A stretch of 64,000 nucleotides of DNA from Candidatus Bathyarchaeota archaeon (GCA_963811105.1 CAWEPZ010000011.1:1434332-1498331); one strand, 5' to 3'; positions 42,100 to 61,281 are shown, numbered from the stretch's first letter. Notes: generated from the sequence alone by a model not told the origin. A program made the numbers and translations.

Positions 42100-42105
42100 T
42101 ACGCT

Positions 42106-42885
42106 TTGAGGTTTATGAAAATGAAAACTTTAGTAACAGTTGGTCGTGGCGGAACAGGAAAATCCAGTTTCACCGCTCTAATGGCTAAATGTTTTATTGA
42201 AGCTGGGCAATCTCCCTTGTTGCTGGTTGACGCTGACCCTGATCAGAACCTTGCTGAAATGCTTGGAATAGACCTAAAAGAGGCTGGAAAATCAACTATA
42301 GCCGATCTCCTCGTGAGTACATTCATTGAGCAAGGAGGTACCATTGTTGGCATTCCCCCAACTGAACGCATCGAAAGTAGGATTTGGGAAAACGGTTTGT
42401 ATGAGAGCAAGAATTTTGACTTTCTTGCAGTTGGCACTAAGTGGGTTGAAGGCTGCTATTGCATGCCAAACTCAGCTTTGAAAGGTGCGTTAGAGTCTTT
42501 AACTAAAAACTACAAGTACATAATTGTCGATTCTCCAGCTGGACTTGAAAACCTAAACAGGCGAATTACATCAAATGTTAATGACATATTCGATATTCTT
42601 GACCATTCAAAGAAATCAATGGACCATGTGAAACGAGCCTACAAAATAGCTAAAGAAGTTGACATGAAATTTGAAAACTTCTACTTAATCGGTGGCTATC
42701 GTTTTCCGCTTGAACTCGGCAAACAGGCTGAGGCTGATTTAAAATTCAAGTATTTGGGAAAAATCTCTGAAGACGAACAATTAGATGAGTATGTTCTCAA
42801 TGGGAAGTCGTTGCTTGATTTGCCGTCAGATAATAAGGCATATCTTTCGGTTAAGGTCATCTTGAAATCTTTAGGTTATTTATGA
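42106..42885 (+). CDS. cooC: Second CooC/AcsF-family ATPase
   Basis: GRGGTGKS, DADPDQNL, EGCYC, DSPAGLENLNR. Confidence 0.88.
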   Translation: MRFMKMKTLVTVGRGGTGKSSFTALMAKCFIEAGQSPLLLVDADPDQNLAEMLGIDLKEAGKSTIADLLVSTFIEQGGTIVGIPPTERIESRIWENGLYESKNFDFLAVGTKWVEGCYCMPNSALKGALESLTKNYKYIIVDSPAGLENLNRRITSNVNDIFDILDHSKKSMDHVKRAYKIAKEVDMKFENFYLIGGYRFPLELGKQAEADLKFKYLGKISEDEQLDEYVLNGKSLLDLPSDNKAYLSVKVILKSLGYL

Positions 42886-43040
42886 GCCTAATTCTTTACA
42901 CATTCGCGCGCTTCTTTTACATAATTTTTCTGAAACCTTCCGTTTCTATGATTTCTCCGTGACTTTTGCTTGAGAATCTGGAAAGGTTTAAAAAGATTGT
43001 CATGCAGCATAGAAGTAAACCTTTACAGAGGTTACCTAAT

Positions 43041-45389: not shown

Positions 45390-45405
45390 TCGGAGGAGAT
45401 AAACT

Positions 45406-45948
45406 ATGTCCTGTGAACCATGGCAATGTGCAGAAATAGCATCAACTAAAAAAGCAAACCCAATACAAAAACCCGAGATAGCAGTAGCAATGATCAAAAA
45501 AGCCCAACGTCCCCTTCTTATTGTGGGAAGTAACGCCACTGAAAGGTACATGGAAGGTAAGCAATTAATTGAATACCTAATTGATTTCGCTAACGCCTCT
45601 AAAGTACCAGTAGTGGCAACGGCCCATATGGTGGGAGAATTCCTAAAACGTGGATACCAACCAGCTGCATTTATGAACGCAATGGAGATTGGCAACCTAG
45701 TAGTTGATCCAACCTGGCAAGGCTTAGATGGTAAAGGACACCCAGACCTAGTTATGTTCGTCGGGTTACCTTACTATGTTGAATCATTAGTCCTCTGCGG
45801 ACTCAAACATTTTGCACCAGACCTAAAAACCATGACCCTTGACAACCTGTTTCACGTCCACGCAAGTTGGTCTTTCCCAAATGCAACCTTGGAAGATTGG
45901 GCTGCAAATCTTAAAGTAATGACCTCAAAATTTAATGGAGGAAATTAA
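45406..45948 (+). CDS. cdhB: CODH/ACS epsilon subunit
   Basis: EPWQ.AE, AQRPLLIVG, WQGLDGKG, LKHFA, HASWSFPN. Confidence 0.95.
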   Translation: MSCEPWQCAEIASTKKANPIQKPEIAVAMIKKAQRPLLIVGSNATERYMEGKQLIEYLIDFANASKVPVVATAHMVGEFLKRGYQPAAFMNAMEIGNLVVDPTWQGLDGKGHPDLVMFVGLPYYVESLVLCGLKHFAPDLKTMTLDNLFHVHASWSFPNATLEDWAANLKVMTSKFNGGN

Positions 45949-45953
45949 AAAAA

Positions 45954-47366
45954 ATGTCAATGTTTAAAGATATACCTGTCGAAGTTGGCGTAATATTCGA
46001 AGGCGAACGTATCCGAAGAAACGACATGCAAGTCGAACTTGGCGGACCAACAGTAAAACAGAAATTCGAATTAGCAAAAGTAAAACCCATGAACGAGATC
46101 GAAGATGGAAAAATCTCCATTATCGGTCCAGACTTAAAAGACATGAAAGAAGGCGGCGCATATCCATTTGGCATTCTTGTTGAAGCTGCTGGCGCAAAAC
46201 TAGACCAAGGTCTAGAAGGCGTTATCGAAAGGCGTATTCACGGCTACCTCAACTACATCGAAGGCTTCATGCACCTAAACCAACGCTATGACATCTGGAT
46301 ACGCATCGGCAAAAAATCTTTCGCAAAAGGCTTAAACAGCTTTGAACCAATCGGAAAAGTACTCCTCAGACTATTCAAGAGCGAACTGCCAATTATCGAG
46401 AAAGTACAAATTACCTTCATAACCGATCCAGCAAAACTAGAAGAAATGACTCCTGAAGCAATGCAAGCGTATGAATCACGCGACGCAAAAGCCAGAGGTC
46501 TCAAAGACTCAGAAGTGGATACATTCTACGGATGTGCACTCTGCCAATCATTCGCACCTAGCCACGTGTGCATAATAACACCACAAAGATACAGCAACTG
46601 CGGCGCAATTAGCTGGTTTGACGGCAAAGCCTCAGCAAGCATTGATCCTAAAGGTCCAGTCTTCGCAATTCCAAGAGGCGAAATAATAAACGAAGAGAAG
46701 GGCGAATTCAGCGGCGTCAACGAAGCAGCAAAGAAACGCACTATGGGCGAAGTTAGCCAAGTTTGGCTCTACACAGCATTTGATCATCCACATACTTCAT
46801 GCGGATGCTTCGAAGCAGTAACCTTCTACATCCCAGAAGTCGACGGATTTGGTGTGGTTAACAGAAGCTTCAAAGGTGCATCCGTAAACGGCTTGCCTTT
46901 CAGCACCATTGCAGACTCAGCGGCAGGCGGAAGACAAATCGATGGTTTCCATGGAATGTCTATTGAATATATGAGAAGCAAGAAATTCTTCGCTGCGGAC
47001 GGCGGATGGAACCGTGTCGTCTGGGTACCAAAAGAAGTAAAAGAAAAAGTGAAAGAATTCATACCAAAAGATGTCGTTGACAAAGTAGCAACTGAGGATG
47101 ACGCAAAGAACGTAGAAGAACTCAAAGCTTTCCTAAAGGCTAAGAATCACCCAGTAGTCGCGAAATGGGAAGCAGAAGAAGCACCAGCAGCAGAAACAGC
47201 AGCCGTACAATTTACCGAAGAAGCAGCGGGTACAATGATGCCAGTTGCAACAGCCTCGTCGCTTCCAATAATGGCCGGCGGATTCAAAATCATCCTCAAA
47301 GACGCAAAAATCTACGCTAACAAAGTAATCATAACAACTGTAAAGAACGAGAAAGAGAAGCGGTGA
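45954..47366 (+). CDS. cdhC: Acetyl-CoA synthase (beta subunit)
   Basis: EGERIR, FYGCALCQSFAPSH, HTSCGCFE. Confidence 0.96.
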   Translation: MSMFKDIPVEVGVIFEGERIRRNDMQVELGGPTVKQKFELAKVKPMNEIEDGKISIIGPDLKDMKEGGAYPFGILVEAAGAKLDQGLEGVIERRIHGYLNYIEGFMHLNQRYDIWIRIGKKSFAKGLNSFEPIGKVLLRLFKSELPIIEKVQITFITDPAKLEEMTPEAMQAYESRDAKARGLKDSEVDTFYGCALCQSFAPSHVCIITPQRYSNCGAISWFDGKASASIDPKGPVFAIPRGEIINEEKGEFSGVNEAAKKRTMGEVSQVWLYTAFDHPHTSCGCFEAVTFYIPEVDGFGVVNRSFKGASVNGLPFSTIADSAAGGRQIDGFHGMSIEYMRSKKFFAADGGWNRVVWVPKEVKEKVKEFIPKDVVDKVATEDDAKNVEELKAFLKAKNHPVVAKWEAEEAPAAETAAVQFTEEAAGTMMPVATASSLPIMAGGFKIILKDAKIYANKVIITTVKNEKEKR

Positions 47367-48613
47367 CCCGGTTGCCTCAAGACGATGGCAAGAAAAAAGG
47401 CGACGAAGGTCTAAAACTCAGTAGTGACCTATTGGAAGCCCTTGCAAGATTCCAGCAAATCGAGCTGGAAGACTTCCAAATGGATGTCAAAGACCTAGAA
47501 ATAATCTTTGAGCCAGGCATGGCTGGGCAAATCATGCCCAAACTAAAGCTTCCAGCAGCAATTGCAGGTGGAAAACCAACCGCTATGCTGCAGACAGCTT
47601 TTGTTCCTCCGGTTGAAACCTACCCAAACAAGATTGCTGAAGTAAGACTTGGCGGAACCAGAAAAGAAGGCGGAACACGCGGAAAATCACTCGTAATAGG
47701 CGGAGAAGTTTCTCCTGCATTCTACAATTTTGAACGACCAACTACCCATAAACCAGTTATCACCCTTGACGTTTTCGACATGGAAGTTCCATTGAGCAAA
47801 GCAGTAAAAATGCACGTTAAAGAAGTCGTAGGTGACCCAGCTGCGTGGGCAAAACTTGCAGTAGAAAAATTCGACGCAGACATGGTGACGGTTCACTTAA
47901 TCAGCATTGACCCACTTCTCAAAGACGCTACTCCAAAAGATGCAGTCAAAACTGTGGAAAAAGTTTTGCAAGCAGTTGATGTTCCCCTGGTTATCGGCGG
48001 ATGCGGTGACCCAGTGAAGGATGCAAATGTTTTCGAAGCCATATGTGAAGCTTTCCCCAACGAACGCTTCCTAATTAGCTCAATTACACGAGATATGGAT
48101 GTTGAGCGCTGTGCAAAGTATGTTAAAAAGAATGGGCATGTTGCGTTATCATTTACTCCGATGGACTTGAACTTGGCACGGGAACTTAACAGGCGACTAT
48201 ACGATTTCCTCGACAGAGAAGACATAGTTATGGACTTAACTACTGCAGCGTTAGGCTACGGTTTAGATTATGCATTCACCAACATGGAACGAGCTAGAAT
48301 CGGCGGCTTAATGGGCGATGTTGAATTGGCTCATCCAATGTCCTCAGGAACAACTAACGCTTGGGCAGCCCGTGAAGCTTGGCTAAAAATGTCAGCTGAA
48401 TGGGAACCACGTGAACTCAGAGGTCCACTCTGGGAAGTAACAACAGCCTTAACACTATTGCTTGCTGGCGTTGACTTATTCATGATGATGCATCCTGCAG
48501 CAGTAAAAACACTCAAAGACGTGACAAACTTCCTAACAAGCGGCAAAAAAGCAGACGCTTCAAAATATGCTAACTGGGTTAGCCTAAAAGCCAAAGGAGT
48601 GCAAATGCCATGA
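47363..48613 (+). CDS. cdhD: Corrinoid Fe-S protein small (delta) subunit
   Basis: GGTRGK..IGGE, HLISIDP, TAALGYGLDY, NAWAAREAW, MMMHP. Confidence 0.95.
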   Translation: MTRLPQDDGKKKGDEGLKLSSDLLEALARFQQIELEDFQMDVKDLEIIFEPGMAGQIMPKLKLPAAIAGGKPTAMLQTAFVPPVETYPNKIAEVRLGGTRKEGGTRGKSLVIGGEVSPAFYNFERPTTHKPVITLDVFDMEVPLSKAVKMHVKEVVGDPAAWAKLAVEKFDADMVTVHLISIDPLLKDATPKDAVKTVEKVLQAVDVPLVIGGCGDPVKDANVFEAICEAFPNERFLISSITRDMDVERCAKYVKKNGHVALSFTPMDLNLARELNRRLYDFLDREDIVMDLTTAALGYGLDYAFTNMERARIGGLMGDVELAHPMSSGTTNAWAAREAWLKMSAEWEPRELRGPLWEVTTALTLLLAGVDLFMMMHPAAVKTLKDVTNFLTSGKKADASKYANWVSLKAKGVQMP

Positions 48614-50034
48614 GCGAAAAAAAGAAAGCTGGATTAAAAGAATTAAGTCCCATTGACATTTACAAGCTTCTTCCAAAAATCAACTGCAAAGAATGCGGTC
48701 AAGACAACTGTATGGCGTTTGCCACAAAAATCGTCAACCGGGAAGTAAACATCGACACATGTCCACCACTGCTAAAGAAAGAAAACGAAAAAGCCTACAA
48801 ACAGCTAAGAGAAATTCTAAAGCCAGCGGTTAAAGAAGTCACAGTTGGCGTTGGAGACAACGCAAGAAAACTCGGCGGCAAACTAGTAATGTACCGCCAT
48901 GAATTCACCTATACAAACCCAACAGCCATCGCTATCGATGTAACTGACGAAATGTCTCCACAGGAAACTGAAAACCGCATAAAACGCACAGAAAACTATA
49001 GCTTCGAATACATTGGCTACACACTAAAACTGGACATGATTGCCGTCCGTTCAACATCTGGCGACGCAGAAAAATTCAAAGCAACTGTGAAAAAAGTAGC
49101 TGAAACAACCAAACTGCCCATGATTCTATGCACATTAAACTCAAGTGTTCTTGAAGCTGGGCTAATGGCTGCGCCAAAAGCACGACCACTGATATATGCA
49201 GCTACTAAAGAAAACTGGAAAGACATGGCAGAACTCGCCCTAATGTATAGTTGTCCACTAGTAGTTTCAGCCCCAAACGATCTAACAACGCTTGTTTCAC
49301 TTGCCAAAACCTTGATCGCTTACGGCGTAACTGATTTAGTCTTAGACCCAGGCACTTTTATCAACGAAGGATTACCCGATACCATTAACAACTTTACAAT
49401 GCTGCGAAGAGCTGCTACCAAGGGCGGCGAAGAACTGGCTGGATTCCCATTGATGGGTGTTCCGATGGTTGCTTGGATGGAAGGCGGCGAAACATTTGAA
49501 GACGTACTGAAATGGCGCGAAGCATACGTAGCCTCAATGCTTGTTGTGCGATATGCCGACGTGCTTGTTATGCATGGAAACGATGGCTGGTCACTGCTAC
49601 CGATAACCGTACTAAGACAAAATATTTACACTGACCCACGCAAGCCAGTTGCAGTTGCTCCGGGCCTCAAAGTGTTTGGCACTCCAGACGAAAATTCGCC
49701 AGTGTTCTTCACATCAAACTTTGCCTTAACTTACTACACCGTTGCCTCAGACCTTGAAAGCAGCAAACTCAATGCGTACCTAATAGTAGTAGAAACTGAA
49801 GGATCAGCCATAGACAGCGGAGTCGCAGGACGCAAACTAACTGCTGAACGTGTAGCAGATGCAATCAAAGCTTCAGGTGTAGAAAGCAAGGTGAAGCACA
49901 GAAAAATCATCATCCCCGGCAAAGCTTCAAGGATCAGCGGCGAAATCGAAGAACTCAGCGGCTGGAAAGTTCAAGTAGGGCCACGCGACAGCAGTGAGAT
50001 ACCCAAGTATCTTATTGAAAAATGGCAACCCTAA
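48610..50034 (+). CDS. cdhE: Corrinoid Fe-S protein large (gamma) subunit
   Basis: LPKINCKECG..CMAFA..CP, YRHE, IYTDP.KP, NFALTY, VGPRDS. Confidence 0.96.
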   Translation: MSEKKKAGLKELSPIDIYKLLPKINCKECGQDNCMAFATKIVNREVNIDTCPPLLKKENEKAYKQLREILKPAVKEVTVGVGDNARKLGGKLVMYRHEFTYTNPTAIAIDVTDEMSPQETENRIKRTENYSFEYIGYTLKLDMIAVRSTSGDAEKFKATVKKVAETTKLPMILCTLNSSVLEAGLMAAPKARPLIYAATKENWKDMAELALMYSCPLVVSAPNDLTTLVSLAKTLIAYGVTDLVLDPGTFINEGLPDTINNFTMLRRAATKGGEELAGFPLMGVPMVAWMEGGETFEDVLKWREAYVASMLVVRYADVLVMHGNDGWSLLPITVLRQNIYTDPRKPVAVAPGLKVFGTPDENSPVFFTSNFALTYYTVASDLESSKLNAYLIVVETEGSAIDSGVAGRKLTAERVADAIKASGVESKVKHRKIIIPGKASRISGEIEELSGWKVQVGPRDSSEIPKYLIEKWQP

Positions 50035-50683: not shown

Positions 50684-52159
50684 TGCGGTATCTTTGGTGC
50701 AATAAACTATGAGAATCAACCAGTTTTTCCGTATGTTTACTGGGGGTTACGCGCCCAAAACCACCGAGGACACCAGTCGCACGGTTTTCTAACTTATAGT
50801 GATAAAGAATTTTTTACGTACAAAAATTTAGATTTGGTTCCTAAAGTAAAAAATGATGCCATAAAAGAATGGTTTGGCCGTCTTCCGGGATCAATAGGGA
50901 TCGGCAACGTAAGGTATACAACTTCAGGCAAATGCGACGACGTCTCCATAATACAGGGTACCCAACCAGTTGTCGCCACTGTGAATGGCTCAAAACTTGC
51001 TCTTTCATTTAACGGTAACATTGTTAATACTTTGCCGCTGAAAAGAGAAATGTCTGAGAATTTCCCAGACTTTACATATAGCTGCGATTCTGACATTGTA
51101 TGCAACAAAATGCTCTTAGCCCTAAAACAAGGCAAAGACTTGCCGTCTGCAGCCAAACAAGTTATGGAAAGTTTAGACGGCGCATTCTCTATAACGGGCA
51201 TAACAGGAGAGGGCGAATTTTTCGCCTTCAAAGATCCGCATGGAATAAAACCCTTATGTGCTGGGCATGACCCCGCAGGAAAAACTTTTGCTTTTTCCTC
51301 TGAAACCGTAAGCTTAGATATGAACAGTTTTGTTAGAGATTTTGAACTGAAACCAGGCGAACTAGTAACCGTTTCAAAAGACGGCTTCAAGCGTATCCAA
51401 CTTATACAAAACCCTCACCCAGCTTTCTGCTGTTTCGAATATGCTTATTTCGCCAGGCCCGATTCACGATTTAACGGTAAATACGTTTATGAAATTCGGG
51501 AAGATTTCGGCAGAAATATAGTAAAAGAAAATCCCGAAGTAGTAAAGGAAAGCGATATTATTCTTTCAGTTCCTGAAACGGGCGATGACTCGGCGATGGG
51601 CGTACATGAAGCCTCTGGTTTAAGATGGGAACGGGCGTCAAGGCGGCACCGTTATGTTACAGAGAGAGCTTTCATTCTTCTAAATGTCGAGCGTTTTTCG
51701 ACTATCGATAAGAAAATTAACATTTTAGGCTCCAAAGTAGATGGAAAACGAGTCATAATAACTGAAGACAGTATAGTTCGAGGAGACACAACCAAAGTAA
51801 TAATTGATAAATTGCGGAAAGCAGGTGCCAAAAAAGTTTATGTCTTCGTTACTTTTCCACGAATCATTGGTCCATGCTTTTACGGGATTGATATGTCAAC
51901 ATATGGGCAACTTGTCGGCTCAAGAAACAGTGCCGAAGAAATCGCTAAAATCATAGGCGCAGACGGTGTCTGCTACCAATCCATTGAGGCACTGGTAGGT
52001 GCTACAGGCCAGACAAAAGACCAATTATGTTTGGCCTGCATCTCAGGCGATTATCCGACTCCATGTGCACAAAAAATGGCTGACGCAATGAGAAAAAGAT
52101 TCCTCGACGGCTATGAGGAAAAATCAAGAATTTATGAGTCAGATGAAGTGCAACCATAG
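50684..52159 (+). CDS. purF: Amidophosphoribosyltransferase (coordinates from catalytic Cys; true start codon unclear)
   Basis: In-frame CGIFG at 50684, QNHRG, RYTTSG, NGNIVN, CCFEYAYFARPDS, EDSIVRGDT, CFYGIDM, CLAC. Confidence 0.93.
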   Translation, partial: CGIFGAINYENQPVFPYVYWGLRAQNHRGHQSHGFLTYSDKEFFTYKNLDLVPKVKNDAIKEWFGRLPGSIGIGNVRYTTSGKCDDVSIIQGTQPVVATVNGSKLALSFNGNIVNTLPLKREMSENFPDFTYSCDSDIVCNKMLLALKQGKDLPSAAKQVMESLDGAFSITGITGEGEFFAFKDPHGIKPLCAGHDPAGKTFAFSSETVSLDMNSFVRDFELKPGELVTVSKDGFKRIQLIQNPHPAFCCFEYAYFARPDSRFNGKYVYEIREDFGRNIVKENPEVVKESDIILSVPETGDDSAMGVHEASGLRWERASRRHRYVTERAFILLNVERFSTIDKKINILGSKVDGKRVIITEDSIVRGDTTKVIIDKLRKAGAKKVYVFVTFPRIIGPCFYGIDMSTYGQLVGSRNSAEEIAKIIGADGVCYQSIEALVGATGQTKDQLCLACISGDYPTPCAQKMADAMRKRFLDGYEEKSRIYESDEVQP

Positions 52160-52220: not shown

Positions 52221-53636
52221 ATGCAAAGAATAGGTGTCCTAGTTATTTCTTATGGTGCAAGAGAAGTTGCCATGGTTGACGCTCTTTTGCAAAGCAAAGA
52301 ATATCAAGTGGCTCTCTATATTGCGGACAAACAACTCAATCCGTTCAATGTGGAAAAAGCTACCAAACATGTTGTTATACCAAACCTTGATGTTGAAGAA
52401 ATCTGCAAATTCGCTGAGGAGAACAAAGACAAAATAAGTTTTGGTCTGGTTGGCTCTGAAAAGCCCATAATTGAAGGCGTCCGCGATCAAATCGAAAAAC
52501 TCACGGGCATACCTGTTATTTGTCCAAAGCAACAATTCGCTATAGAAGTCAGCAAAGTAGAGCAGCGACTACTTTTTGATGAGATTGCACCAGAAGCAAA
52601 TCCCCGCTTCAAAGTTTTTAATCCAGCCGACTACAAAGGCTCAGCAGACGTTAGACGCGAAGTTTACAGTTGGTTAGACGAACTAGAAAACCAAGCTGTA
52701 GTAAAACCTGATAAGCCAGCCTTGGGCAAAGGCGTTGGCGTTTGGGGCGACCACTTCGCGAACCGAGAGCAACTTTTCGATCACTTCCTATCCAACTTCC
52801 AATATGGCTCAGTCATAATAGAGGAAAAGATAGATGGTGAAGAATCAAGTTTCATGGCTTTCTGCGACGGCAAACACTTCATACCTCTGCCAGACACACG
52901 GGATTACAAGCGAGCCTTCGATGACGACAAAGGTCCAAATACCGGCGGCATGGGCTCATACAAAGACGCTGGTGACAAACTGCCTTTTCTAACCACAGCT
53001 GACCGCGAAGCAGAACTTATTTTAGGTAATAAAATTTTCAAGGGGTGGCAATCCAAAATCAAAGATGACACAGCGCTTCGAGGCGTCCCGCTATACCTTG
53101 CGTTCATGCATACAGGACAAGGCATTAAAGTTCTTGAAAATAACAGTCGTCCAGGCGACCCAGAAATAATTAACCTGCTTGCACTCATAAAGGACGATTT
53201 TGTTGATTTATGCTTCAAAATGATTGAAGGAAACCTAACAAGCATTCAGCTTGAACAGTCTGCATCCGTTTTAACCTATAAAGTTCCACCAGATTACGGC
53301 GGATACGCCGATCTGTTCCCGAGTCAAGCGGACAAAGCAGCGATAGATTCGCCAGTTGACCTCTCAAAAGCCCATGCATTAACTAAGAAATACGGAAATA
53401 GAATCAGAATTTACCCTGGTTCAATGGAAACCCGATCCGGTATAAACTACGCCTTAAGATCACGTGCCGTGGGAGTTTTAGGCATTGGCAAAAGTATTGA
53501 AGAAGCACGGCAAATGAGCCTTGAAGGCGTTGAAGCAATCTCGGGCGGAGGATTGTGGAACCGAAATGATGTTGCGTCAAAACAACATATTGCGAAAAGC
53601 ATCAGTCACATGGACAATTTGAGGCGCAAAGCGTGA
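52221..53636 (+). CDS. purD: Phosphoribosylamine-glycine ligase (divergent archaeal type)
   Basis: GARE, VVKPD..GKGV, IEEKIDGEESS, DYKRAFDDDKGPNTGGMG, ENNSRPGDPE. Confidence 0.92.
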   Translation: MQRIGVLVISYGAREVAMVDALLQSKEYQVALYIADKQLNPFNVEKATKHVVIPNLDVEEICKFAEENKDKISFGLVGSEKPIIEGVRDQIEKLTGIPVICPKQQFAIEVSKVEQRLLFDEIAPEANPRFKVFNPADYKGSADVRREVYSWLDELENQAVVKPDKPALGKGVGVWGDHFANREQLFDHFLSNFQYGSVIIEEKIDGEESSFMAFCDGKHFIPLPDTRDYKRAFDDDKGPNTGGMGSYKDAGDKLPFLTTADREAELILGNKIFKGWQSKIKDDTALRGVPLYLAFMHTGQGIKVLENNSRPGDPEIINLLALIKDDFVDLCFKMIEGNLTSIQLEQSASVLTYKVPPDYGGYADLFPSQADKAAIDSPVDLSKAHALTKKYGNRIRIYPGSMETRSGINYALRSRAVGVLGIGKSIEEARQMSLEGVEAISGGGLWNRNDVASKQHIAKSISHMDNLRRKA

Positions 53637-54715
53637 AGCGCATCTTCATTTCCGACTGTGAAGGACCAATCTCAAAGAATGATAACGCCTACGAGTTAGC
53701 AGCAAATTTTATTCCAAACGGCGATAAACTTTTTGCTAACATAAGCAAGTACGACGATGTTTTGGCGGATGTAGTGCGCAAACCCGGTTATTCAGCAGGC
53801 AGTACCTTAAAGCTGATTTTGCCTTTCTTTAAAGCGTATGATATAATCGATAAGCAAATGGAAGAGTTTTCGGAAAAAAACATTGTTTTAATCGCTAACA
53901 GCAAAAACACTCTAAGCTACGTACAAGCACGAACAGAAGCTTTCATCGTCAGTACCAGCTACGAGTACTACATCAAAGCATTATGCAAGGCTCTCAGTTT
54001 TCCATACCAAGACACTTATTGCACAAAAGTAAGGCTCGACAAATACTCAATCACAAAACAAGAGAAAAAACGACTTAAAGAAATAGGAGAGGAAATCAGT
54101 CAGATTCGCTTAATCGATATACCTCCCGCTGGAAGAAAAATGGAGCAATTTTCCCGTAGCGCCGTGGCATTAATTGGGCGTTTAGACGACATTTTCTGGA
54201 GCGAAATCCCCAAAATGACCGTTGGGAAAATGCTCTCTGATGTGGTGACGGTTGGCGGGGAACAAAAAGCCGAGGCAATACGCGATGTCACAAAGCGTTT
54301 CCAAGCTGAATTGGCAGATGTAATGTATGTGGGCGACAGTATAACCGATGTGGAAGCCTTCAAATTAGTCCGCGAAAACGGGGGCTTAACAGTATCTTTC
54401 AACGGCAATAGTTATGCAGTTAAAAATGCGGATGTGGCAGTTCTATCCGAAAGCAACTTTACAACAGCTATTTTCGCTGATTTGTTTTGCAGGTTTGGAA
54501 AAGAAAAAACAATCAGCGCCCTTGGCTCGTGGAATATTGAAGGCCTCAAGAAAAGCGGCGTTGACAAAGATTTACTTGGTCAACTTAGAATTTTGTATCC
54601 TAACCAATTGCCTAAAGTTCAAATAGTAACAGCCCAAAATATGGAAATGCTAGTAAAAGAAAGCAGTGAATTTAGAAAAAAAGTTAGAGGAGTAGCCGTT
54701 GGGGGTCTCGGGTAA
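53633..54715 (+). CDS. HAD-like phosphohydrolase (COG4030, often labelled EhaR)
   Basis: FISDCEGPISKNDNA, STSY, K, YVGDSITD, SFNGN. Confidence 0.82.
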   Translation: MKRIFISDCEGPISKNDNAYELAANFIPNGDKLFANISKYDDVLADVVRKPGYSAGSTLKLILPFFKAYDIIDKQMEEFSEKNIVLIANSKNTLSYVQARTEAFIVSTSYEYYIKALCKALSFPYQDTYCTKVRLDKYSITKQEKKRLKEIGEEISQIRLIDIPPAGRKMEQFSRSAVALIGRLDDIFWSEIPKMTVGKMLSDVVTVGGEQKAEAIRDVTKRFQAELADVMYVGDSITDVEAFKLVRENGGLTVSFNGNSYAVKNADVAVLSESNFTTAIFADLFCRFGKEKTISALGSWNIEGLKKSGVDKDLLGQLRILYPNQLPKVQIVTAQNMEMLVKESSEFRKKVRGVAVGGLG

Positions 54716-55624
54716 ATGAGCAAAGCGCCAATAGAGGATACGTATGCTGAAGCTTTCGCGGGGATTTTTTGCAGAGTGATCGTAACTGCAGATGATGAAG
54801 AAACATTACGCAGGGCAGCTGAAGATTCAACAGCAACCCCGTCGGTTGTAATCGGCAGAACGGAAGGCGGAGTCGAAAAATACCTCACTCCAAAAGAAAC
54901 TCCAGACAAACGCCAAGGCGCATTGCTTCAGTTCTGGGGAGAAATAAACCTCAACAAAACCTTCGAGCAATCCCTCAAGAAATTTGAAACTGAACTTTCC
55001 TACCGCATCCGCCAAGACATCCTAGTAAAGCCCTTCACCGCTGTTTATGACGCCTTGCCAAATGCGGCGGGTAAGATGGATATGATGGAGACTGTTGGGC
55101 ATTGCGGCGACGGCTACGAATGGGTTGAAAAAAGGGGTGACAGAGAAGTTGTTGTTGTTCCTTTAATGGTTCCTGACTTTGTCATTGAGCGCTACTTAGG
55201 TTATGATCGGGGCGTTATGGGCGGCAACTTCTGGGTAATGTGTAAAACCAAGCAGGACCTAATGCAAGCGGGAGAAAAAGCCTTGAAAGCAATCCACAAC
55301 GTAAAAGGTGTGGTTACGCCCTTTGATGTTTGCTCGGCAGGCTCCAAGACAGAAACCCATTTCCCAAAAATTGGTCCAACAACCAACCACCTGTACTGTC
55401 CCTCTCTAAAGGAGCGATTAGGCAAAGAGTCACTTGTTCCACAAGGGGTAGGTTACATAGCCGAAATAGTCTACGATGGCGTTTCTTTAGAAGCCATTAA
55501 AGAAGCAACAAAGGTTGGAATCGAATCAGTAATTGGTATTGACGGAGTCGTGAAGGTGTCAGCCGGCAATTACGGCGGCAAATTAGGCGAATATAAAATA
55601 TTCTTGCGAGAGTTGTTTGTATGA
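54716..55624 (+). CDS. Formylmethanofuran:H4MPT formyltransferase-like protein (divergent Ftr paralog)
   Basis: IEDTYAEAF, ETPD.R.G, GDGYE, GGNF, SAGSK, TN..YCPSL, EIV.DG, SAGNYGGKLG. Confidence 0.88.
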   Translation: MSKAPIEDTYAEAFAGIFCRVIVTADDEETLRRAAEDSTATPSVVIGRTEGGVEKYLTPKETPDKRQGALLQFWGEINLNKTFEQSLKKFETELSYRIRQDILVKPFTAVYDALPNAAGKMDMMETVGHCGDGYEWVEKRGDREVVVVPLMVPDFVIERYLGYDRGVMGGNFWVMCKTKQDLMQAGEKALKAIHNVKGVVTPFDVCSAGSKTETHFPKIGPTTNHLYCPSLKERLGKESLVPQGVGYIAEIVYDGVSLEAIKEATKVGIESVIGIDGVVKVSAGNYGGKLGEYKIFLRELFV

Positions 55625-56535
55625 CTAAATTTGATGTTGTAGGTTTTGGAGCACTTAACGTCGATATGCTCTTCAAAGTAAACAAGCTTGCTGGAGCAGA
55701 AGAGGAAAGTTTTGTTGATGATTGCACTGAGGCTTGCGGTGGCTCAGCCGCAAATACCATGGTTGGGTTGGCAAGACTAGGCTGCAAAACCGGCTTTATA
55801 GGTAAAGTAGCCAACGACCGAGAAGGCAAACTACAAGTCGACTGCTTAAAAACCGAAGGCGTAGATACCGACGGCATAATTGAGGCAACAAAGGGCAAGA
55901 GCGGTTCAGTAATGGGCTTCGTAGACCGGAAAGGTGCAAGAGCACTTTACATCAATTTAGGCGTGAACGATACAATCGAGCCACGGGAATTGAAATGGGA
56001 TTATGTTTCTCAGACCAAATTTCTACATCTATCCTCCTTTGTGGGAGAAAAGCCACTTCGTGCACAAAAAAAGTTGTTAGGTTCCCTCCCAAACGATGTA
56101 AAAATCAGCTTTGACCCTGGCTCAGTATATGCACAGAGGGGTTTTGCAGCTATAGAACCAATAATTAGAAATTCTCATGTTTTGATGCCTAATGCTTTTG
56201 AACTTGAACTTTTAACCGGAGAAGTTGATTACCGCAACGGCGCCGATTTCATGATTGAAGTTGGCGTTAAAATTGTTGCAGTTAAGCTTGGTGACAAAGG
56301 TGCTTACGTGACTAATGGTGACGAAAGGCTAATGGTAGAGCCCTTCAAAGTTAAAGCGGTCGATACAACTGGCGCTGGAGACGCTTTTTGCGCTGGTTTC
56401 CTTTACGGCTTGATACATAAAAAAAGCCTCTATGAGTGCGGTCAGTTGGGGAACTTTGTGGCTTCCAGAAGCGTTATGGCAATGGGTGCACGTGCTGGTT
56501 TGCCCTATGCGAAGGATTTAGCACTTCTTTACTAG
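55621..56535 (+). CDS. PfkB/ribokinase-family kinase
   Basis: GALNVD, GGSAANT, SFDPG, VKLG.KG, DTTGAGDAF. Confidence 0.92.
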   Translation: MTKFDVVGFGALNVDMLFKVNKLAGAEEESFVDDCTEACGGSAANTMVGLARLGCKTGFIGKVANDREGKLQVDCLKTEGVDTDGIIEATKGKSGSVMGFVDRKGARALYINLGVNDTIEPRELKWDYVSQTKFLHLSSFVGEKPLRAQKKLLGSLPNDVKISFDPGSVYAQRGFAAIEPIIRNSHVLMPNAFELELLTGEVDYRNGADFMIEVGVKIVAVKLGDKGAYVTNGDERLMVEPFKVKAVDTTGAGDAFCAGFLYGLIHKKSLYECGQLGNFVASRSVMAMGARAGLPYAKDLALLY

Positions 56536-57336
56536 TTTGTCTATTATGCTTTGGAAGATTAGTTTTCCGTCACCGTATTGCAGCATTTGTTGTTTGTCTG
56601 TCCAGTTGGGTTGTTGCCACCAGTACATTGCCCTTTCAGGGTGAGGCATTAAACCGAAAATGTTTCCTTCTTTATTGCATATGCCTGCGATGTCATAGGT
56701 TGAGCCGTTTGGGTTCTCTGGATATTTGCCGTCTGCAATGTTGCCGTTTTTATCGCAGTATCGTAAAACAACCATATCCTCATCAATTAGTTTCGCAAGC
56801 ATTTCCTGCTCTTTCTCTTTGGGAAACAGTAATCTTCCTTCTCCGTGAGCGATAGGCATGCTGAGTATTTTGCCTGCTGGGATTTTGTTCGTGAAACTGC
56901 ATTTTCCTTTGTTTTCATTTTTGAGGTAGACCCATTTGCATTTGAATCCTGCTGGTTCATTGTTTGTTAATGCGGCTTCTGGATAGGTGCTTATGCCTTG
57001 GAAACCTGGCAGCAACCCGTACTCAACCATTATTTGGAAGCCATTGCATATGCCCAGAATTGGTCTGCCTTCGTCAACAAAAGTTTCAATTTCTTTGCCT
57101 AACTTGGCGCTAACCCACCGCGCAAAAATTACGCCTGAACGTACGTAATCGCCAAACGAGAAACCGCCTGGAAAAACCAGTACCTGATAATCCAACAGAT
57201 TTTTCCGTTTCACTAACTCATTGATATGCAGAACTTCCGCTTGCACATCTAACTCCAGAAAAGCCCGCTGGGTTTCTGCGTCGCAGTTGATTCCGCCGGC
57301 ACGCATTACGCAAACTTTGATTTCTCCATGATTCAT
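56518..57336 (-). CDS. purQ: FGAM synthase glutaminase subunit
   Basis: G.NCD.E, PGGFSFGD, GICNGFQ, AHGEG, NPNGS, MPHPER. Confidence 0.96.
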   Translation of the reverse strand: MNHGEIKVCVMRAGGINCDAETQRAFLELDVQAEVLHINELVKRKNLLDYQVLVFPGGFSFGDYVRSGVIFARWVSAKLGKEIETFVDEGRPILGICNGFQIMVEYGLLPGFQGISTYPEAALTNNEPAGFKCKWVYLKNENKGKCSFTNKIPAGKILSMPIAHGEGRLLFPKEKEQEMLAKLIDEDMVVLRYCDKNGNIADGKYPENPNGSTYDIAGICNKEGNIFGLMPHPERAMYWWQQPNWTDKQQMLQYGDGKLIFQSIIDKLVKKC

Positions 57337-59717
57337 TAAGGTTCACCGCTTAACGTTTTTTTCCAGCAGCGTCGCAACTCGGCAAGTGAGGCATCAACAA
57401 CAACCTTCTTGTTTAATCCATGAATAAGCAATTTCTCATCTTTGGTAACTTTACCAATTAATGCGCAGTCTTTTCCTTTCATTAGAGTCTCAAATTGTTT
57501 TTTGTCTTTTTCTGAGACCTCTATTAAGAAGCGACTGTTTGATTCGGAAAACAATACAAAGTCACTTCGCTTGACGGATTTGCCGGGCACTTTGCACAAG
57601 TCAAGTTCTAAGCCAAAATTGCCTGCAAATGCTATCTCTGCTGCTGCCACTGCTAATCCACCCTCAGAAAGGTCATGGCATGATTTCACTAAACCAAAGT
57701 CGATAGCTTTAGTTACAGCTTTGAATGTGCGTCTGGCTTTGGCACCTTTGACTCTAGGTACGTTTGCGCCAAGGTAGCCTTTGAGCTTGTAGTATTCTGA
57801 ACCGCCAAGTTCATTGAATGTTTCTCCAATAATGTAGAGCAGGTTGCCGGGCTCTTTCAAATCCATAGACACAGTTAACTGAATATTGGGCACTACTCCT
57901 ACTGCAGTAATTAGAAGGGTAGGCGTTACTGGACCCAGCGGGGACTCGTTATAGAGGCTGTCTTTTCCCGAAATGAATGGGGTCCTAAAAGCAGTCGCAA
58001 AGTCAAAGCACGCCTCACAAGCTCTTACTAGCGAGCCTAAACGCTCCGGTTTCTCAGGATTACCCCATGTGAAATTATCCAGCAGAGCGATTCTTCTTCC
58101 CCCGACCGCAACGTTGTTTCTTATTGCTTCATCAATGGCTGAAGCTGCCATCCAGTAAGCATCAATTTTGCCATAATTGGGATTCATTCCACACGAAATT
58201 GACAAGCCCTTCCAAGAATCATCGAGAGGTTTCAGCACTGCTGCATCGTTTGGTCCAGCGTACTCACCTTGTAACGGCTTAAGAGTTGTGTTGCCTTTTA
58301 CCTCGTGGTCGTAGGTGCGTATGACGCTTTCTTTGCTGGCGATGTTGGGTGCGGAAAGAAGCTGCTTTAACGTTTCTGTTAAATTCTGTGATTCTGCAAA
58401 ATCTGGCTCCGCTAAACTTTGGGTCTCAATGGTTGCTGTTTTCATGCTTCCGCAAGGACTAAACAGAAAAGCCATATCCACCTCGGCAACTTTTTCGCCG
58501 TTGAAACTAAGCTCCAAACGCCTCTGACTTGTTAGTTTGCCTATCGCTGAGGCTCGAACATCTTCTTTTTCAAAAACCGCCATGACCCGCTCCAAATTTT
58601 CCGGCGGCACTGTTATCAGCATTCTTTCTTGGGATTCGGAAATGTAAATTTCCCATGGAGCCAAACCTTGATACTTCAATGGTACCTTGCCAAGCTCAAT
58701 TGTGACTCCACAATCAAATTTCTCGGCTGTTTCTCCAACTGCTGAAGATAAGCCTCCCCCTCCAAGATCCGTTGTAGCCGACGCTAATTGCAAATCTCGG
58801 ATTTCAATGATTGCCCGTTTAACTTTTTCTTCTTCAATGGGGTCGGCTATTTGGACGGCTGGACGAGAAATTTCTTCTGATTTCTCTGTGAGCTCCGCTG
58901 ACGCGAAGGTTACTCCGTGGATGCCATCGCGTCCTGTTTTTCCGCCTGCGATAACGATTATGTGTTCTGGTTTGGCGTTTTTGGTGAATTTGATTAATGG
59001 AAGTAGTCCTATGCATCCGCAGTATACAGTGACGTTGCCTGTGTAGCTCTCGTCAAAGTATATGGCTCCGTTAACAGTTGGGATCCCCATGTTGTTACCA
59101 TATGCGCTGATGCCTGCAGTCACACCCATGTACACGTATTTTGGGTGTTTAACGCCAGCAGGAAGTTTACTATAATCATAATCCAATGGACCGAAGCCTA
59201 AGACGTCAGTGCACGCAATTGGATCAGCCCAAACGCCCAAAATGTCTCGAATTACGCCCCCAACGCCTGTAGCTGCTCCGCCGAAAGGTTCAACTGCTGA
59301 TGGGTGATTGTGAGTTTCCACTTTGGCTGCAATTCCATAACCTTTATCAAATTTTACGATGCCAGCGTTGTCTTCAAAAACGCTGAAGCACCAAGGAGCC
59401 TTAATTTGTTTAGTTGCCTTTGCGATGTAAGTTTTGAAGAGGCTGTCAATTTCTTTGCCATCAAGAAGAATTTTTCCTTTGAAGGTTTTGTGGCAGCAGT
59501 GTTCCGACCACGTTTGGCTTATAGTTTGCAGTTCTACATCTGTCGGATTTCTGCCTTCAATGGAAAAGTAGGATTGGATGCTTTTCATTTCTTCTAAGCT
59601 TAAACCTAAAGCTAGTTCGTTACTGATTTCGACGAGTTGTTTGTCAGTAGCTTTGGCTAGTTTAGCTTCGTGTAGTGAATATTCTGCTTTGCGGTGGACA
59701 TAGAGGTTAGCGTTCAT
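57336..59717 (-). CDS. purL: FGAM synthase large subunit
   Basis: WSEHC.HK, KVETHNHPS..EPFGGAATG, TGRDG, SESQERM, YDHEV, HDLSEGG. Confidence 0.96.
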   Translation of the reverse strand: MNANLYVHRKAEYSLHEAKLAKATDKQLVEISNELALGLSLEEMKSIQSYFSIEGRNPTDVELQTISQTWSEHCCHKTFKGKILLDGKEIDSLFKTYIAKATKQIKAPWCFSVFEDNAGIVKFDKGYGIAAKVETHNHPSAVEPFGGAATGVGGVIRDILGVWADPIACTDVLGFGPLDYDYSKLPAGVKHPKYVYMGVTAGISAYGNNMGIPTVNGAIYFDESYTGNVTVYCGCIGLLPLIKFTKNAKPEHIIVIAGGKTGRDGIHGVTFASAELTEKSEEISRPAVQIADPIEEEKVKRAIIEIRDLQLASATTDLGGGGLSSAVGETAEKFDCGVTIELGKVPLKYQGLAPWEIYISESQERMLITVPPENLERVMAVFEKEDVRASAIGKLTSQRRLELSFNGEKVAEVDMAFLFSPCGSMKTATIETQSLAEPDFAESQNLTETLKQLLSAPNIASKESVIRTYDHEVKGNTTLKPLQGEYAGPNDAAVLKPLDDSWKGLSISCGMNPNYGKIDAYWMAASAIDEAIRNNVAVGGRRIALLDNFTWGNPEKPERLGSLVRACEACFDFATAFRTPFISGKDSLYNESPLGPVTPTLLITAVGVVPNIQLTVSMDLKEPGNLLYIIGETFNELGGSEYYKLKGYLGANVPRVKGAKARRTFKAVTKAIDFGLVKSCHDLSEGGLAVAAAEIAFAGNFGLELDLCKVPGKSVKRSDFVLFSESNSRFLIEVSEKDKKQFETLMKGKDCALIGKVTKDEKLLIHGLNKKVVVDASLAELRRCWKKTLSGEP

Positions 59718-59965
59718 TTGTGCTCCTCAACAGTTATAGTGTAATTATCTTTGGTTGGGTTTGCCAAAAGGCGCTTGCTCATTTCTTCCGCCTTAGCCAC
59801 CGCTTCTTTAGCGGTCGAAGCTTGAAGAGTAACAGTGTAAACTTTGCTTACGTCCACTGCTTCTACTTTGTAACCAAGTTCTACTAGCAAACGGGCAGTG
59901 GTTTCTCCCTCAGGATTGCTATGGCCAGGTTTTAGGCTAACTTCTATTTTGGCAAAGTATTTCAT
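59714..59965 (-). CDS. purS: FGAM synthase small subunit
   Basis: LKPG..NPEG, LLANP. Confidence 0.93.
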   Translation of the reverse strand: MKYFAKIEVSLKPGHSNPEGETTARLLVELGYKVEAVDVSKVYTVTLQASTAKEAVAKAEEMSKRLLANPTKDNYTITVEEHK

Positions 59966-60023: not shown

Positions 60024-61103
60024 TTACGTCAAAATCATCCTTTTGTTTTGATGCAGTATTTCTACAGTTTGTTTGTCTGTCACTTTGCCAATTATTTCAG
60101 GTGTTGAGCCGTTCTGCTCCAGTGTGTTCATGGCTTTTTCAATTTCTGTTTTGTCAACAATTATTCCAAAACCCCAACCCATGTTGAAGGTTTTGAACAT
60201 TTCTTCATCAGTGATGATATAGCCTAATTCGGTTGCTGTCCTTTGGATCAGTCCAAATATCGGTTGCGGTTCGAAGTTGTTAAATTCAAAGCCTATGCCT
60301 GGAGAATAATTAGCAAGATTTTTGAATTTCAAGTAAGCGTCGCCTGTTATGTGTACCGCTGCCTTCACTTTTACTTCACTTGCTAATTTTTTTAAAGGCT
60401 TAACATAAATTTTCGTGGGCTCAAGCGCTTCAAGAACGATTTTCCTGCTTAAGCCTTCTGGAACATCGTTTGGCTCATATCTTCCGCCCCATTGTTTAAA
60501 GAGAATTTTTCTTGCAAGCGTTATGCCATTGCTATGCAACCCGCTACTTGCTAAACCTATTATTGGATCGCCAGGTTTGATATTTTCTCCAGTTATGATT
60601 TCTTGTCGTTCAACTTTGCCTACTGAGGAGACGACCATGTCAAACCCAACGTTTTCAGTTAAGCCTTGAATTATTTCTGCAACGTCACCAGTTTCTCCGC
60701 CTGTAACTGGGCACTCAGATTCAACAGCGCCTTGAATGATTCCTTTTAACCACGCCTTCAAAAGCTCAGGATTGCTTTCTTGCGCGTGAATATTGTCTGC
60801 TATTGCTAGTGGTTTGGCTCCTGAGCGGATGACATCGTTTACAGCCATGGCTACGGCGTCTACCCCTATGGTGTCATATTTCTGCGCTAACTGCGCAATG
60901 AGCACTTTGGTACCTACGCCTTCTATGACAATGTCCAGAAAGGTGTTTTGGGCAATAGGGAAAATGTTACCGTAAGGCAGATGCATTATACCACCATAGA
61001 GGCTATGCTTGTAGGTTTCTTGCAGATTTTTTAGTGCTTTTTTGGATTCGACTCGTTGTTGACGGTTTACGCCTGCATCTGTGTAGGTGTAATTCTTTGG
61101 CAA
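60024..61103 (-). CDS. purM: AIR synthetase
   Basis: TY.DAGV, EGVGTK, AMAVND, GGET, SSGLHSNG, EPTKIY, HITG, TFNMG; TTG at 61103. Confidence 0.95.
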   Translation of the reverse strand: MPKNYTYTDAGVNRQQRVESKKALKNLQETYKHSLYGGIMHLPYGNIFPIAQNTFLDIVIEGVGTKVLIAQLAQKYDTIGVDAVAMAVNDVIRSGAKPLAIADNIHAQESNPELLKAWLKGIIQGAVESECPVTGGETGDVAEIIQGLTENVGFDMVVSSVGKVERQEIITGENIKPGDPIIGLASSGLHSNGITLARKILFKQWGGRYEPNDVPEGLSRKIVLEALEPTKIYVKPLKKLASEVKVKAAVHITGDAYLKFKNLANYSPGIGFEFNNFEPQPIFGLIQRTATELGYIITDEEMFKTFNMGWGFGIIVDKTEIEKAMNTLEQNGSTPEIIGKVTDKQTVEILHQNKRMILT

Positions 61104-61281
61104 GCTGATTTCTCCTTGGTATTCTTTCTGGTTAGTTAGAGATAACGATTTTGCTTGCTTACCCAATAAAAGAATTCGCCATCCCTTTATTCTCATAGAA
61201 ACCATCAGCAAAGAATTATTTCATCAGATTATCATGGGTAAGAATCAATATATTTGCCGAAGCATAAATCAAAATGTACTT

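Follow-up and report, generated by a model that had tools for sequence, protein, structure and literature searches.

A divergent formyltransferase paralog behind purD as a candidate for the missing glycinamide ribonucleotide formylation step of Bathyarchaeia and other archaea

The present analysis deals with a stretch of 64,000 nucleotides from a Candidatus Bathyarchaeota archaeon (GCA_963811105.1, CAWEPZ010000011.1:1434332-1498331), which is called the window here, and especially with three genes that follow purD in a purine biosynthesis operon. They code for a hydrolase of the haloacid dehalogenase (HAD) superfamily belonging to the EhaR family, a divergent paralog of formylmethanofuran:tetrahydromethanopterin formyltransferase (Ftr), which we name Ftr2, and a PfkB-family kinase. 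The comparative evidence makes it probable that this EhaR-Ftr2-PfkB module provides the formylation of glycinamide ribonucleotide (GAR) to formylglycinamide ribonucleotide (FGAR) in archaea that possess neither PurN nor PurT. The assembly to which it belongs consists of 15 contigs with a total length of 3.49 Mb and a completeness of 96.65%, the window being C11:1434332-1498331. The source names attached to near-identical proteins place the organism in Bathyarchaeia. Labels beginning with G, C, L and f denote the genomes, contigs, loci and families of our data sets. The purine cluster comprises the following genes (positions in the window, protein lengths in amino acids, aa):

50834-52159, + strand: purF (amidophosphoribosyltransferase), first gene of the plus-strand pur operon, GATase_7/6 domains; TIGR01134 287.9 bits, missing the cut-off of 350
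52221-53636, + strand: purD (GAR synthetase), divergent, 471 aa, GARS_N/GARS_A/GARS_C domains; TIGR00877 231.4 bits against a cut-off of 288
53633-54715, + strand: HAD-superfamily hydrolase of the EhaR family, 360 aa, weak HAD Pfam matches
54716-55624, + strand: Ftr2, divergent Ftr paralog, 302 aa; PF01913 147.1 bits, PF02741 180.9 bits
55621-56535, + strand: PfkB-family (ribokinase-like) kinase, EhaT-like, 304 aa; PF00294 180.4 bits
56518-57336, - strand: purQ; NF002252 308 bits, above cut-off
57336-59717, - strand: purL; TIGR01736 691.5 bits, above cut-off
59714-59965, - strand: purS; TIGR00302 65.7 bits, above cut-off
60024-61211, - strand: purM; TIGR00878 264.8 bits, above cut-off

The two gene runs are convergent, purF-purD-HAD-Ftr2-PfkB on the plus strand facing purQ-purL-purS-purM on the minus strand. 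The three genes behind purD are tightly joined, with a GTGA start-stop overlap at 53633 between purD and the HAD gene, a TAA abutting the ATG of Ftr2 at 54713-54718, and an ATGA overlap at 55621 between Ftr2 and the kinase gene. An initial annotation made from the sequence had described this gene content and the three coupled junctions, and both were confirmed. It had also stated that the cluster lacks an enzyme for the third purine step, and indeed no GAR transformylase was found among the genes of the pur cluster in the window.

The gap extends to the source genome. Profile searches of the whole assembly returned no match to PurN (TIGR00639), and the best score for PurT (TIGR01142) was 46.3 bits against a cut-off of 502, obtained by a 1139-aa reading frame for a putative carbamoyl-phosphate synthase. 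PurH was likewise not found by profile search of the source genome, which carries two tandem PurP-like genes for the later formylation step outside the window (G000:C11:253325-254964). Since PurP covers this later formylation, of aminoimidazole carboxamide ribonucleotide (AICAR), the formylation of GAR is left as the sole purine step without a candidate enzyme. The second PurP was considered as a substitute for PurT and rejected, because the PurT-bearing Bathyarchaeia G246 and G002 possess the tandem PurP pair as well.

Ftr2 contains both lobes of the Ftr family over its full length, with PF01913 spanning residues 3-150 and PF02741 residues 153-300, and it is 35-40% identical over the full length to solved Ftr structures (E 1e-48 to 1e-53; 1e-30 to 1e-53 for the full-length homology to the Ftr/FhcD group). 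It exceeds the cut-off of the broad subfamily model NF002554 (334.8 bits, cut-off 297) and stays under that of the fhcD/Ftr equivalog TIGR03119 (238.5 vs 292.6 bits). The genome also encodes a copy of the canonical type (Ftr1), for which the initial annotation had proposed a search; it is located outside the window at C11 ~781.1-782.0 kb (L003:744-1761, - strand). Its coding sequence is divided between two reading frames, one for an N-terminal part of 101 aa that contains the G-F-A-T-S-V-I loop and the other for a C-terminal part of 267 aa, which reflects either a sequencing frameshift or a real break. Ftr2 reads EDSTATPSVVIGRTEGG where this other Ftr reads TIGFATSVIE, in agreement with the earlier remark that the paralog departs from the canonical GFATSVIxC. 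In a quick tree of 56 rows, consisting of 50%-identity cluster representatives and the window genome's own two Ftr sequences, Ftr2 falls into an 11-row clade (SH-aLRT 90) apart from a 39-row Ftr1/FhcD clade (SH-aLRT 100) that holds the genome's other Ftr. A second quick tree with 43 Ftr2 rows and 8 Ftr1 rows separated Ftr2 from the Ftr1 outgroup with an SH-aLRT of 100; both trees are without characterised Ftr chains. Ftr2 is thus not the sole Ftr of the genome, and it does not group with canonical Ftr.

The comparison of 31 Ftr2 with 36 Ftr1 sequences revealed what is kept and what is changed. E250, the Glu of an E-I-V motif, is invariant in all 31 Ftr2 sequences and aligns with the E-I-V Glu of the Ftr chains in PDB. 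Mapped by this motif, it is the predicted counterpart of catalytic Glu252 of FhcD, which the available part of PMC6926001 describes as a protonated, oxyanion-stabilising residue. Residues specific for Ftr2 concentrate in four loops, namely 39-47 (T39-A-x-P42-S-x-V45-x-G47 vs T-G-F-A/G-S-x-I-x-C in Ftr1), 99 (R99 vs G), 128-130 (G128-x-C130 vs R-x-F) and 213-221 (E213 and I219-G-P221 vs G and L-x-A). A complex prediction for Ftr2 with EhaR scored 0.00 and was not used as evidence either way.

Regarding the partner proteins, the HAD protein bears the JGI family name 'energy-converting hydrogenase A subunit R' and is homologous to PDB 1Y8A (A. fulgidus AF1437, a structure of unknown function; E 1.4e-32). 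Its HAD motifs I-IV are invariant in 19 homologs of down to 31% identity (D8-x-E10-G-P, S107-T-S-Y, K212 and G234-D-S-I-T-D239). Most HAD phosphatases have a second Asp in motif I, at the place of the Glu in EhaR. Judged from these motifs, the EhaR-family HAD protein is probably an active phosphotransferase. The PfkB kinase scores best with ribokinase (TIGR02152, 168.4 bits vs 299.65), followed by ribose-1-phosphate kinase (153 bits, cut-off 330), and reaches no equivalog among the NCBIfam models. The genes are ordered EhaR-Ftr2-PfkB with overlapping or abutting codons in Bathyarchaeia, while G379 and G395 show the order EhaR-PfkB-Ftr2, 4 nt apart and then overlapping; EhaR and PfkB are still adjacent in 6 of 14 loci with Ftr2 elsewhere. 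The HAD protein and the kinase are clear companions of Ftr2, although either can be present in its absence. As a separate observation, EhaR-PfkB is directly preceded by a gene for an Asd-like semialdehyde dehydrogenase in G379/G395 and in two genomes of Methanonatronarchaeia (L123:5097-8408; L132:4135-7874; L115:6510-10451), which might hint at what the HAD-kinase pair does, or might be chance.

The arrangement around purD is well conserved. We inspected 80 loci from species-representative genomes, all Bathyarchaeia-like, which were collected with a five-row alignment as query and whose Ftr2 is 72-97% identical to the window copy. The order purD-EhaR-Ftr2 was found in 69 of them, so that the co-localisation with pur genes proposed for checking by the initial annotation holds in this class, and 45 display the complete nine-gene arrangement. 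Among the remaining 11 loci, 8 are cut by a contig end, which leaves L009, L080 and L084 as true exceptions. One further Bathyarchaeia contig (L025:1-20840) shows purF-purD-EhaR-Ftr2 followed by an inverted PfkB-EhaR-purD-purF, representing either an inverted duplication or an assembly artefact.

Relatives with a different enzyme complement are informative regarding the position after purD. G246 has the one-strand order purQ-purL-purF-purF-purD-PurT, the last gene encoding a PurT of 467 aa with ATP-grasp and PurT_C domains, and in G069 and G555 purF-purD is directly followed by a gene for a Formyl_trans_N (PurN-like) protein of about 278 aa. These gene orders imply that the slot occupied by the triad is held in relatives by a known type of GAR formyltransferase. 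The divergent PurN-like protein (approximately 270-300 aa, 60-106 bits against the PurN cut-off of 150) is widespread in Bathyarchaeia without Ftr2, for example at L102:798-1634 and L144:7007-7531 and in many genomes of families f56, f54, f65 and f8. It is probably a variant GAR formyltransferase which automated annotation would miss. The PurD proteins differ as well, the one of the window being 26% identical to PurD of the PurT-bearing G246 and 55% identical to PurD of G069.

The distribution surveys covered the phylum to which Bathyarchaeia belong and a second phylum; Methanobacteriales, Methanopyrus and Methanococcales are outside their scope. In an even sample of 301 genomes from the window's phylum, EhaR was detected in 40, which were 40 of the 44 class members and 0 of 257 genomes outside the class. 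Of the 44 class members, 38 possess an Ftr2-type gene, recognised by an identity of 54% or more where Ftr1 does not exceed 42%, and all 38 contain EhaR. PurN above cut-off was found in none of the 44, and PurT-like genes (239-302 bits) were restricted to G002, G117 and G246, all of them without Ftr2 and EhaR. The other class members without Ftr2 are G021, which also lacks purD, and G037 and G069, which carry the divergent Formyl_trans_N gene.

A larger sample of 231 Bathyarchaeia genomes was searched with thresholds of E<=1e-90 for Ftr2, E<=1e-45 for PurT-like and E<=1e-15 for PurN-like genes. Ftr2 was found in at least 86 genomes, a lower bound since fragments such as that of G109 are missed, PurT-like genes in 14 and PurN-like genes in 84, of which 32 exceed the PurN cut-off. 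At these thresholds, no PurT-like or PurN-like match was found in 84 of the 86 Ftr2 genomes, whereas 96 of the 145 genomes without Ftr2 have one of the two (13 PurT, 83 PurN-like) and 49 have neither. The three types also sort by family in a nearly exclusive manner, with Ftr2 in f1-f6, f9, f11, f49, f58, f59 and f62, PurT in f10 and f52, and PurN-like genes in f8, f50, f54, f56, f60, f61 and f63-f69; in family f7 the type changes from genus to genus (Ftr2 in 2 genomes, PurT in 8, PurN in 1). The families with none of them include f53, f55 and f57, and purD was lacking in all five of their genomes that were tested, making it 6 of 6 tested 'neither' genomes if G021 is included. From this gene content, the members of f53, f55 and f57 probably do not make purines.

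The second phylum, which we take to be Halobacteriota in GTDB terms, was reached via the genome of locus L084 and includes Methanonatronarchaeia, Methanocellales and Syntropharchaeia. Among its 201 genomes, EhaR-like genes were detected in 95, PurT (E<=1e-50) in 18, PurN (E<=1e-25) in 98 and Ftr2-type genes in 83, the Ftr2 profile scores being bimodal (at least 381.6 vs at most 294.1 bits). The 83 Ftr2 genomes comprise 77 with neither PurN nor PurT, 6 with PurN and 0 with PurT; in the 118 genomes without Ftr2 the situation is reversed, since 106 contain PurN and/or PurT and 12 neither. EhaR follows Ftr2 here too, being present in 77 of the 83 Ftr2 genomes vs 18 of the 118 others. The initial annotation had suggested examining whether the triad anti-correlates with purN and purT and had named their presence in most triad genomes as a finding that would speak against its proposal; in fact, Ftr2 complements PurN/PurT in both phyla.

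Two Methanonatronarchaeia are of special importance for the question of the formyl donor. The Ftr2 of G315 (L104) is identical to a protein of Methanonatronarchaeum sp., and that of G337 (L112) was matched to Ca. Methanohalarchaeum. Both genomes have a single Ftr-family match, which is Ftr2-type, and both have EhaR; PurN and PurT were not found in them at the thresholds used, and neither were FwdA and MfnB, two families which were detected in the window's genome and in control methanogens. For M. thermophilum, the accessible part of the proteomic study reports that Mer, Mtd, Mch and Ftr are expressed and cannot be connected to the metabolism, because Mtr and Fwd are absent (PMC5852551). If Ftr2 passes the formyl group from N5-formyl-tetrahydromethanopterin (N5-formyl-H4MPT) to GAR, this orphan Mer-Mtd-Mch-Ftr branch of Methanonatronarchaeia would be explained. 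Furthermore, the occurrence of Ftr2 without FwdA or MfnB argues that methanofuran is not its obligatory partner.

Some second-phylum genes appear to stem from Bathyarchaeia. Four Ftr2 sequences of the second phylum are nested within the Bathyarchaeia Ftr2 group (SH-aLRT 99; 92 for the group that encloses them) and are 73-76% identical to the window Ftr2; the copies of L084 and L113 show 76% identity. In G301, G342 and G434, a remnant of 40-54 residues from the C-terminus of a Bathyarchaeia-type EhaR, 56-73% identical and with an in-frame stop in one genome, lies directly 5' of Ftr2 (L084:9867-10897; G434:C1:2417724-2418782; G342:C1:991-2064), G434 being the only one of the three that is among the four nested sequences. 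The Ftr2 beside the remnant scores 449-454 bits on the Ftr2 profile, like the Bathyarchaeia-type copies, and all three genomes also encode, at another place, a distant EhaR-like protein of their own (28-34% identity). It looks as if a Bathyarchaeia-type EhaR-Ftr2 piece moved between the phyla, with Ftr2 kept intact while the incoming EhaR decayed.

The proposed chemistry starts from well-known properties of both systems. Ftr catalyses a reversible formyl transfer whose two partners are N5 of H4MPT and a primary amine, that of methanofuran. FGAR is likewise an N-formyl primary amine, and it is consumed by PurL together with ATP. Ftr2 would be the catalyst, with Ftr fold and oxyanion-stabilising Glu retained, and its remodelled pocket would accept the glycinamide amine of GAR (or of the riboside) instead of the aminomethylfuran amine of methanofuran. 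The formyl donor would be N5-formyl-H4MPT, which the situation in Methanonatronarchaeia favours over formyl-methanofuran, and the transfer would correspond to the Ftr reaction in reverse with another primary amine as acceptor. Given the reversibility of Ftr, the ATP-dependent PurL step could pull the transfer forward. Mtd, Mch and Ftr2 together would then represent the H4MPT counterpart of FolD and PurN. Direct formylation of GAR by Ftr2 in this way is plausible, although we would stop just short of expecting it. The support that is actually observed consists of gene order, clade separation, phyletic complementarity, same-slot replacement and the presence of Ftr2 without Fwd or MfnB. The view of the initial annotation that the triad is a purine module filling the GAR formylation step, and not a set of hydrogenase subunits, is strengthened by its distribution, its operon and the exchange in the slot after purD.

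Several observations weigh against this assignment. The entire case is comparative, i.e. built on sequence, gene order and distribution; the sampled genomes are related, hence their counts overstate independence, and the score threshold for Ftr2, as well as some others, was set after the score distributions had been seen. Two Bathyarchaeia combine Ftr2 with a possible second enzyme, namely G505 with a weak PurT-like match of 175 bits, which may be PurK, and G611, a bin of 370 contigs, with a 100-bit PurN-like gene that lies beside a FolD-like gene on a contig of 11 kb. Six second-phylum genomes have Ftr2 plus PurN, and two of them have an intact EhaR-PfkB-Ftr2 operon. From the 12 second-phylum genomes in which Ftr2, PurN and PurT were all missed at the thresholds used, 11 have purD and 9 have EhaR; missing contigs may explain these 12. 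Moreover, EhaR occurs without Ftr2 in G037 and G069 and in 18 of the 95 EhaR-bearing second-phylum genomes. Beyond Bathyarchaeia, most genes around Ftr2 have no relation to purines: in 20 loci, mch-purM was adjacent once (G315), a GMP synthase subunit B gene twice (3' of Ftr2 in L103 and L121) and purF was 4 kb away once, two loci show an Asd-like-EhaR-PfkB-Ftr2 operon, and the others contain glycolytic or unrelated genes, such as PFK and an aldolase-like gene near Ftr2 in L117 and L120. If the break in Ftr1 of the source genome is real, Ftr2 is its only intact Ftr and might also be needed for the canonical reaction. Finally, formyl-methanopterin was argued to be an unlikely formyl donor in the accessible portion of Brown 2011 (PMC3261824).

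Different ways of reading the triad have to be weighed against these data. A variant within the proposed GAR formylation is a three-step route at the nucleoside level, in which the phosphate of GAR is removed by EhaR, Ftr2 transfers the formyl group of formyl-H4MPT to the resulting glycinamide riboside, and PfkB restores the phosphate to give FGAR, the ATP spent making the use of a low-potential formyl donor irreversible. This route would give all three proteins a task, and it is in line with the coupled adjacent genes in either order (in Bathyarchaeia and in G379 and G395), with the placement of the three genes at the end of the eha operon according to those parts of the literature that are accessible, with the complete set of HAD catalytic motifs in EhaR, with the co-occurrence of EhaR and Ftr2 (77/83 vs 18/118 genomes, and 38/38 in the first Bathyarchaeia sample) and with the EhaR-PfkB pairs that persist in 6/14 loci with Ftr2 elsewhere. 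However, direct transfer to GAR requires neither phosphatase nor kinase and is already pulled by PurL, PfkB reaches no equivalog cut-off, and a GAR phosphatase would be wasteful in the PurN-bearing genomes that possess EhaR without Ftr2 (8 of the second phylum plus G037 and G069). We therefore regard the three-step route as doubtful, though worth keeping in mind. The triad could also fulfil another purine-related or ribose-phosphate task and complement PurN/PurT only indirectly, for example by supplying formate or a formyl donor for an unknown ligase, by formylating glycine or phosphoribosylamine before a divergent PurD acts, or by providing ribose phosphates for phosphoribosyl pyrophosphate (PRPP). 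HAD enzymes often act on sugar phosphates, the best family matches of PfkB are ribokinase and ribose-1-phosphate kinases, the window PurD is divergent (231 bits vs 288, and only distantly similar to PurD of G246), and sugar-phosphate enzymes are neighbours of Ftr2 in L117 and L120. But among 13 genomes tested, PurD exceeds its cut-off in 9, and seven of these nine are EhaR-bearing genomes of the second phylum; the formylation of AICAR is already covered by PurP, which also occurs in two copies together with PurT, and a ribose-phosphate role predicts no exclusion with PurN/PurT, which makes such a task unlikely.

The retained catalytic Glu, the NF002554 score above cut-off and the similarity to solved Ftr structures would also fit an ordinary formylmethanofuran:H4MPT formyltransferase, perhaps an anabolic or differently regulated isoenzyme, with another protein formylating GAR; moreover, several second-phylum genomes have only an Ftr2-type match, and Ftr1 of the window's genome is split over two frames. 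Such an isoenzyme is hard to reconcile with Methanonatronarchaeia, which have Ftr2 but no match to FwdA or MfnB, and it leaves unexplained why Ftr2 complements both PurN and folate-independent PurT in two phyla, why the same slot after purD can hold any of them, and why there are remodelled loops specific to the clade, so we consider it quite improbable. The names EhaR, EhaS and EhaT imply genuine accessory subunits of an energy-converting hydrogenase, and the available text of Kaster 2011 indeed describes co-transcription with ehaA-R in Methanothermobacter. The remark in the initial annotation that a similar triad, ehaR/S/T, ends the eha operon holds, as far as checkable, according to the JGI name of EhaR and the literature in its accessible parts, and its statement that no hydrogenase genes are present was confirmed inasmuch as no match to the large-subunit families PF00346 and PF00374 lies inside the window. 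In this genome such matches exist only at C9:195.5-196.5 kb and C11:258.9-264.2 kb, i.e. on another contig or at a distance of over 1.1 Mb; the families to which the three proteins belong are all of soluble enzymes, and EhaR and Ftr2 stand directly behind purD in the great majority of Bathyarchaeia loci (69/80). A role as hydrogenase subunits is therefore scarcely credible here.

Two further features of the window concern one-carbon metabolism, which the initial annotation had mentioned by pointing to mer and cdh:

41311-50034, + strand: cdhA, cdhB, cdhC, two CdhD-family genes and two cooC-like genes (cdhABCDE), directly 5' of the pur operon
6529-7524: luciferase-like, Mer-like gene (putative)

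The cdh genes were thus corroborated, while the gene at 6529-7524 can only be called Mer-like. The acetyl-CoA synthase (cdh) genes and the purine genes are neighbours in the window.

With respect to previous work, archaea without PurN and PurT were reported by Brown 2011 (PMC3261824) and Chadwick 2022 (PMC9012536), which supports, in the parts of both papers that are accessible, the corresponding statement of the initial annotation. The same portions list the GAR formyltransferase of Archaeoglobi, Methanobacteriales, Methanopyrus and the anaerobic methanotrophic ANME-1 archaea as missing since at least 2011 (PMC3261824, PMC9012536), and the former writes of 'four Methanomicrobiales' where the latter cites the same result as Methanobacteriales. 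The gene triad, the Ftr2 clade and the missing enzyme have each been noticed before; the proposal made here links them. The species behind the 'four Methanomicrobiales' of 2011 presumably belong to Methanobacteriales. No literature statement connecting an Ftr paralog to GAR formylation was found in a full-text search, which most subscription journals lie outside.

One candidate gene can now be named for the long-missing archaeal GAR formyltransferase, together with a broad comparative case. If the proposal is true, Ftr2 would represent a third, non-homologous enzyme class for GAR formylation, and the H4MPT-bound one-carbon pool would feed purines directly, contrary to the stated expectation on formyl-methanopterin. 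The orphan branch of Methanonatronarchaeia and the odd EhaS/EhaT genes would find an explanation as well. Should the ATP-driven shunt at the nucleoside level be realised, it would be a new layout of the purine pathway, and three 'hydrogenase subunits' would be misnamed purine enzymes. At present, an Ftr2 gene is taken for one of the Wood-Ljungdahl pathway or of methanogenesis, and wherever the metabolism of Bathyarchaeia, ANME-1, Altiarchaeota and others is reconstructed, the 'Ftr' calls would have to be reread.

Compared with known systems, Ftr2 resembles Ftr/FhcD (PDB 1FTR, 1M5H, 1M5S, 6S6Y) in both fold families, in the E-I-V Glu and in the proposed reversible chemistry. It differs from them by its separate clade, the TIGR03119 score below cut-off, the replaced G-F-A-T-S-V-I-x-C loop, the location in a pur operon and the occurrence without FwdA/MfnB in G315 and G337, whereas the window's genome has both. 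With PurN and PurT it shares the proposed place in the pathway and the slot after purD, and their distributions are nearly exclusive. However, there is no sequence relationship to either of them, the proposed donor is N5-formyl-H4MPT instead of 10-formyl-tetrahydrofolate (PurN) or formyl phosphate (PurT), and Ftr2 is accompanied by a HAD hydrolase and a kinase of the PfkB family, neither of which PurN and PurT need. EhaR, EhaS and EhaT, encoded by the last genes of the eha operon in Methanobacteriales, represent the same three protein families as neighbours; the orthology of EhaS with Ftr2 rests on the names and on the Ftr2 clade in the accessible part of Chadwick 2022 (PMC9012536), EhaS being outside our trees. 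In contrast to this eha-operon triad, the triad of Bathyarchaeia is situated inside a purine operon with no hydrogenase nearby.

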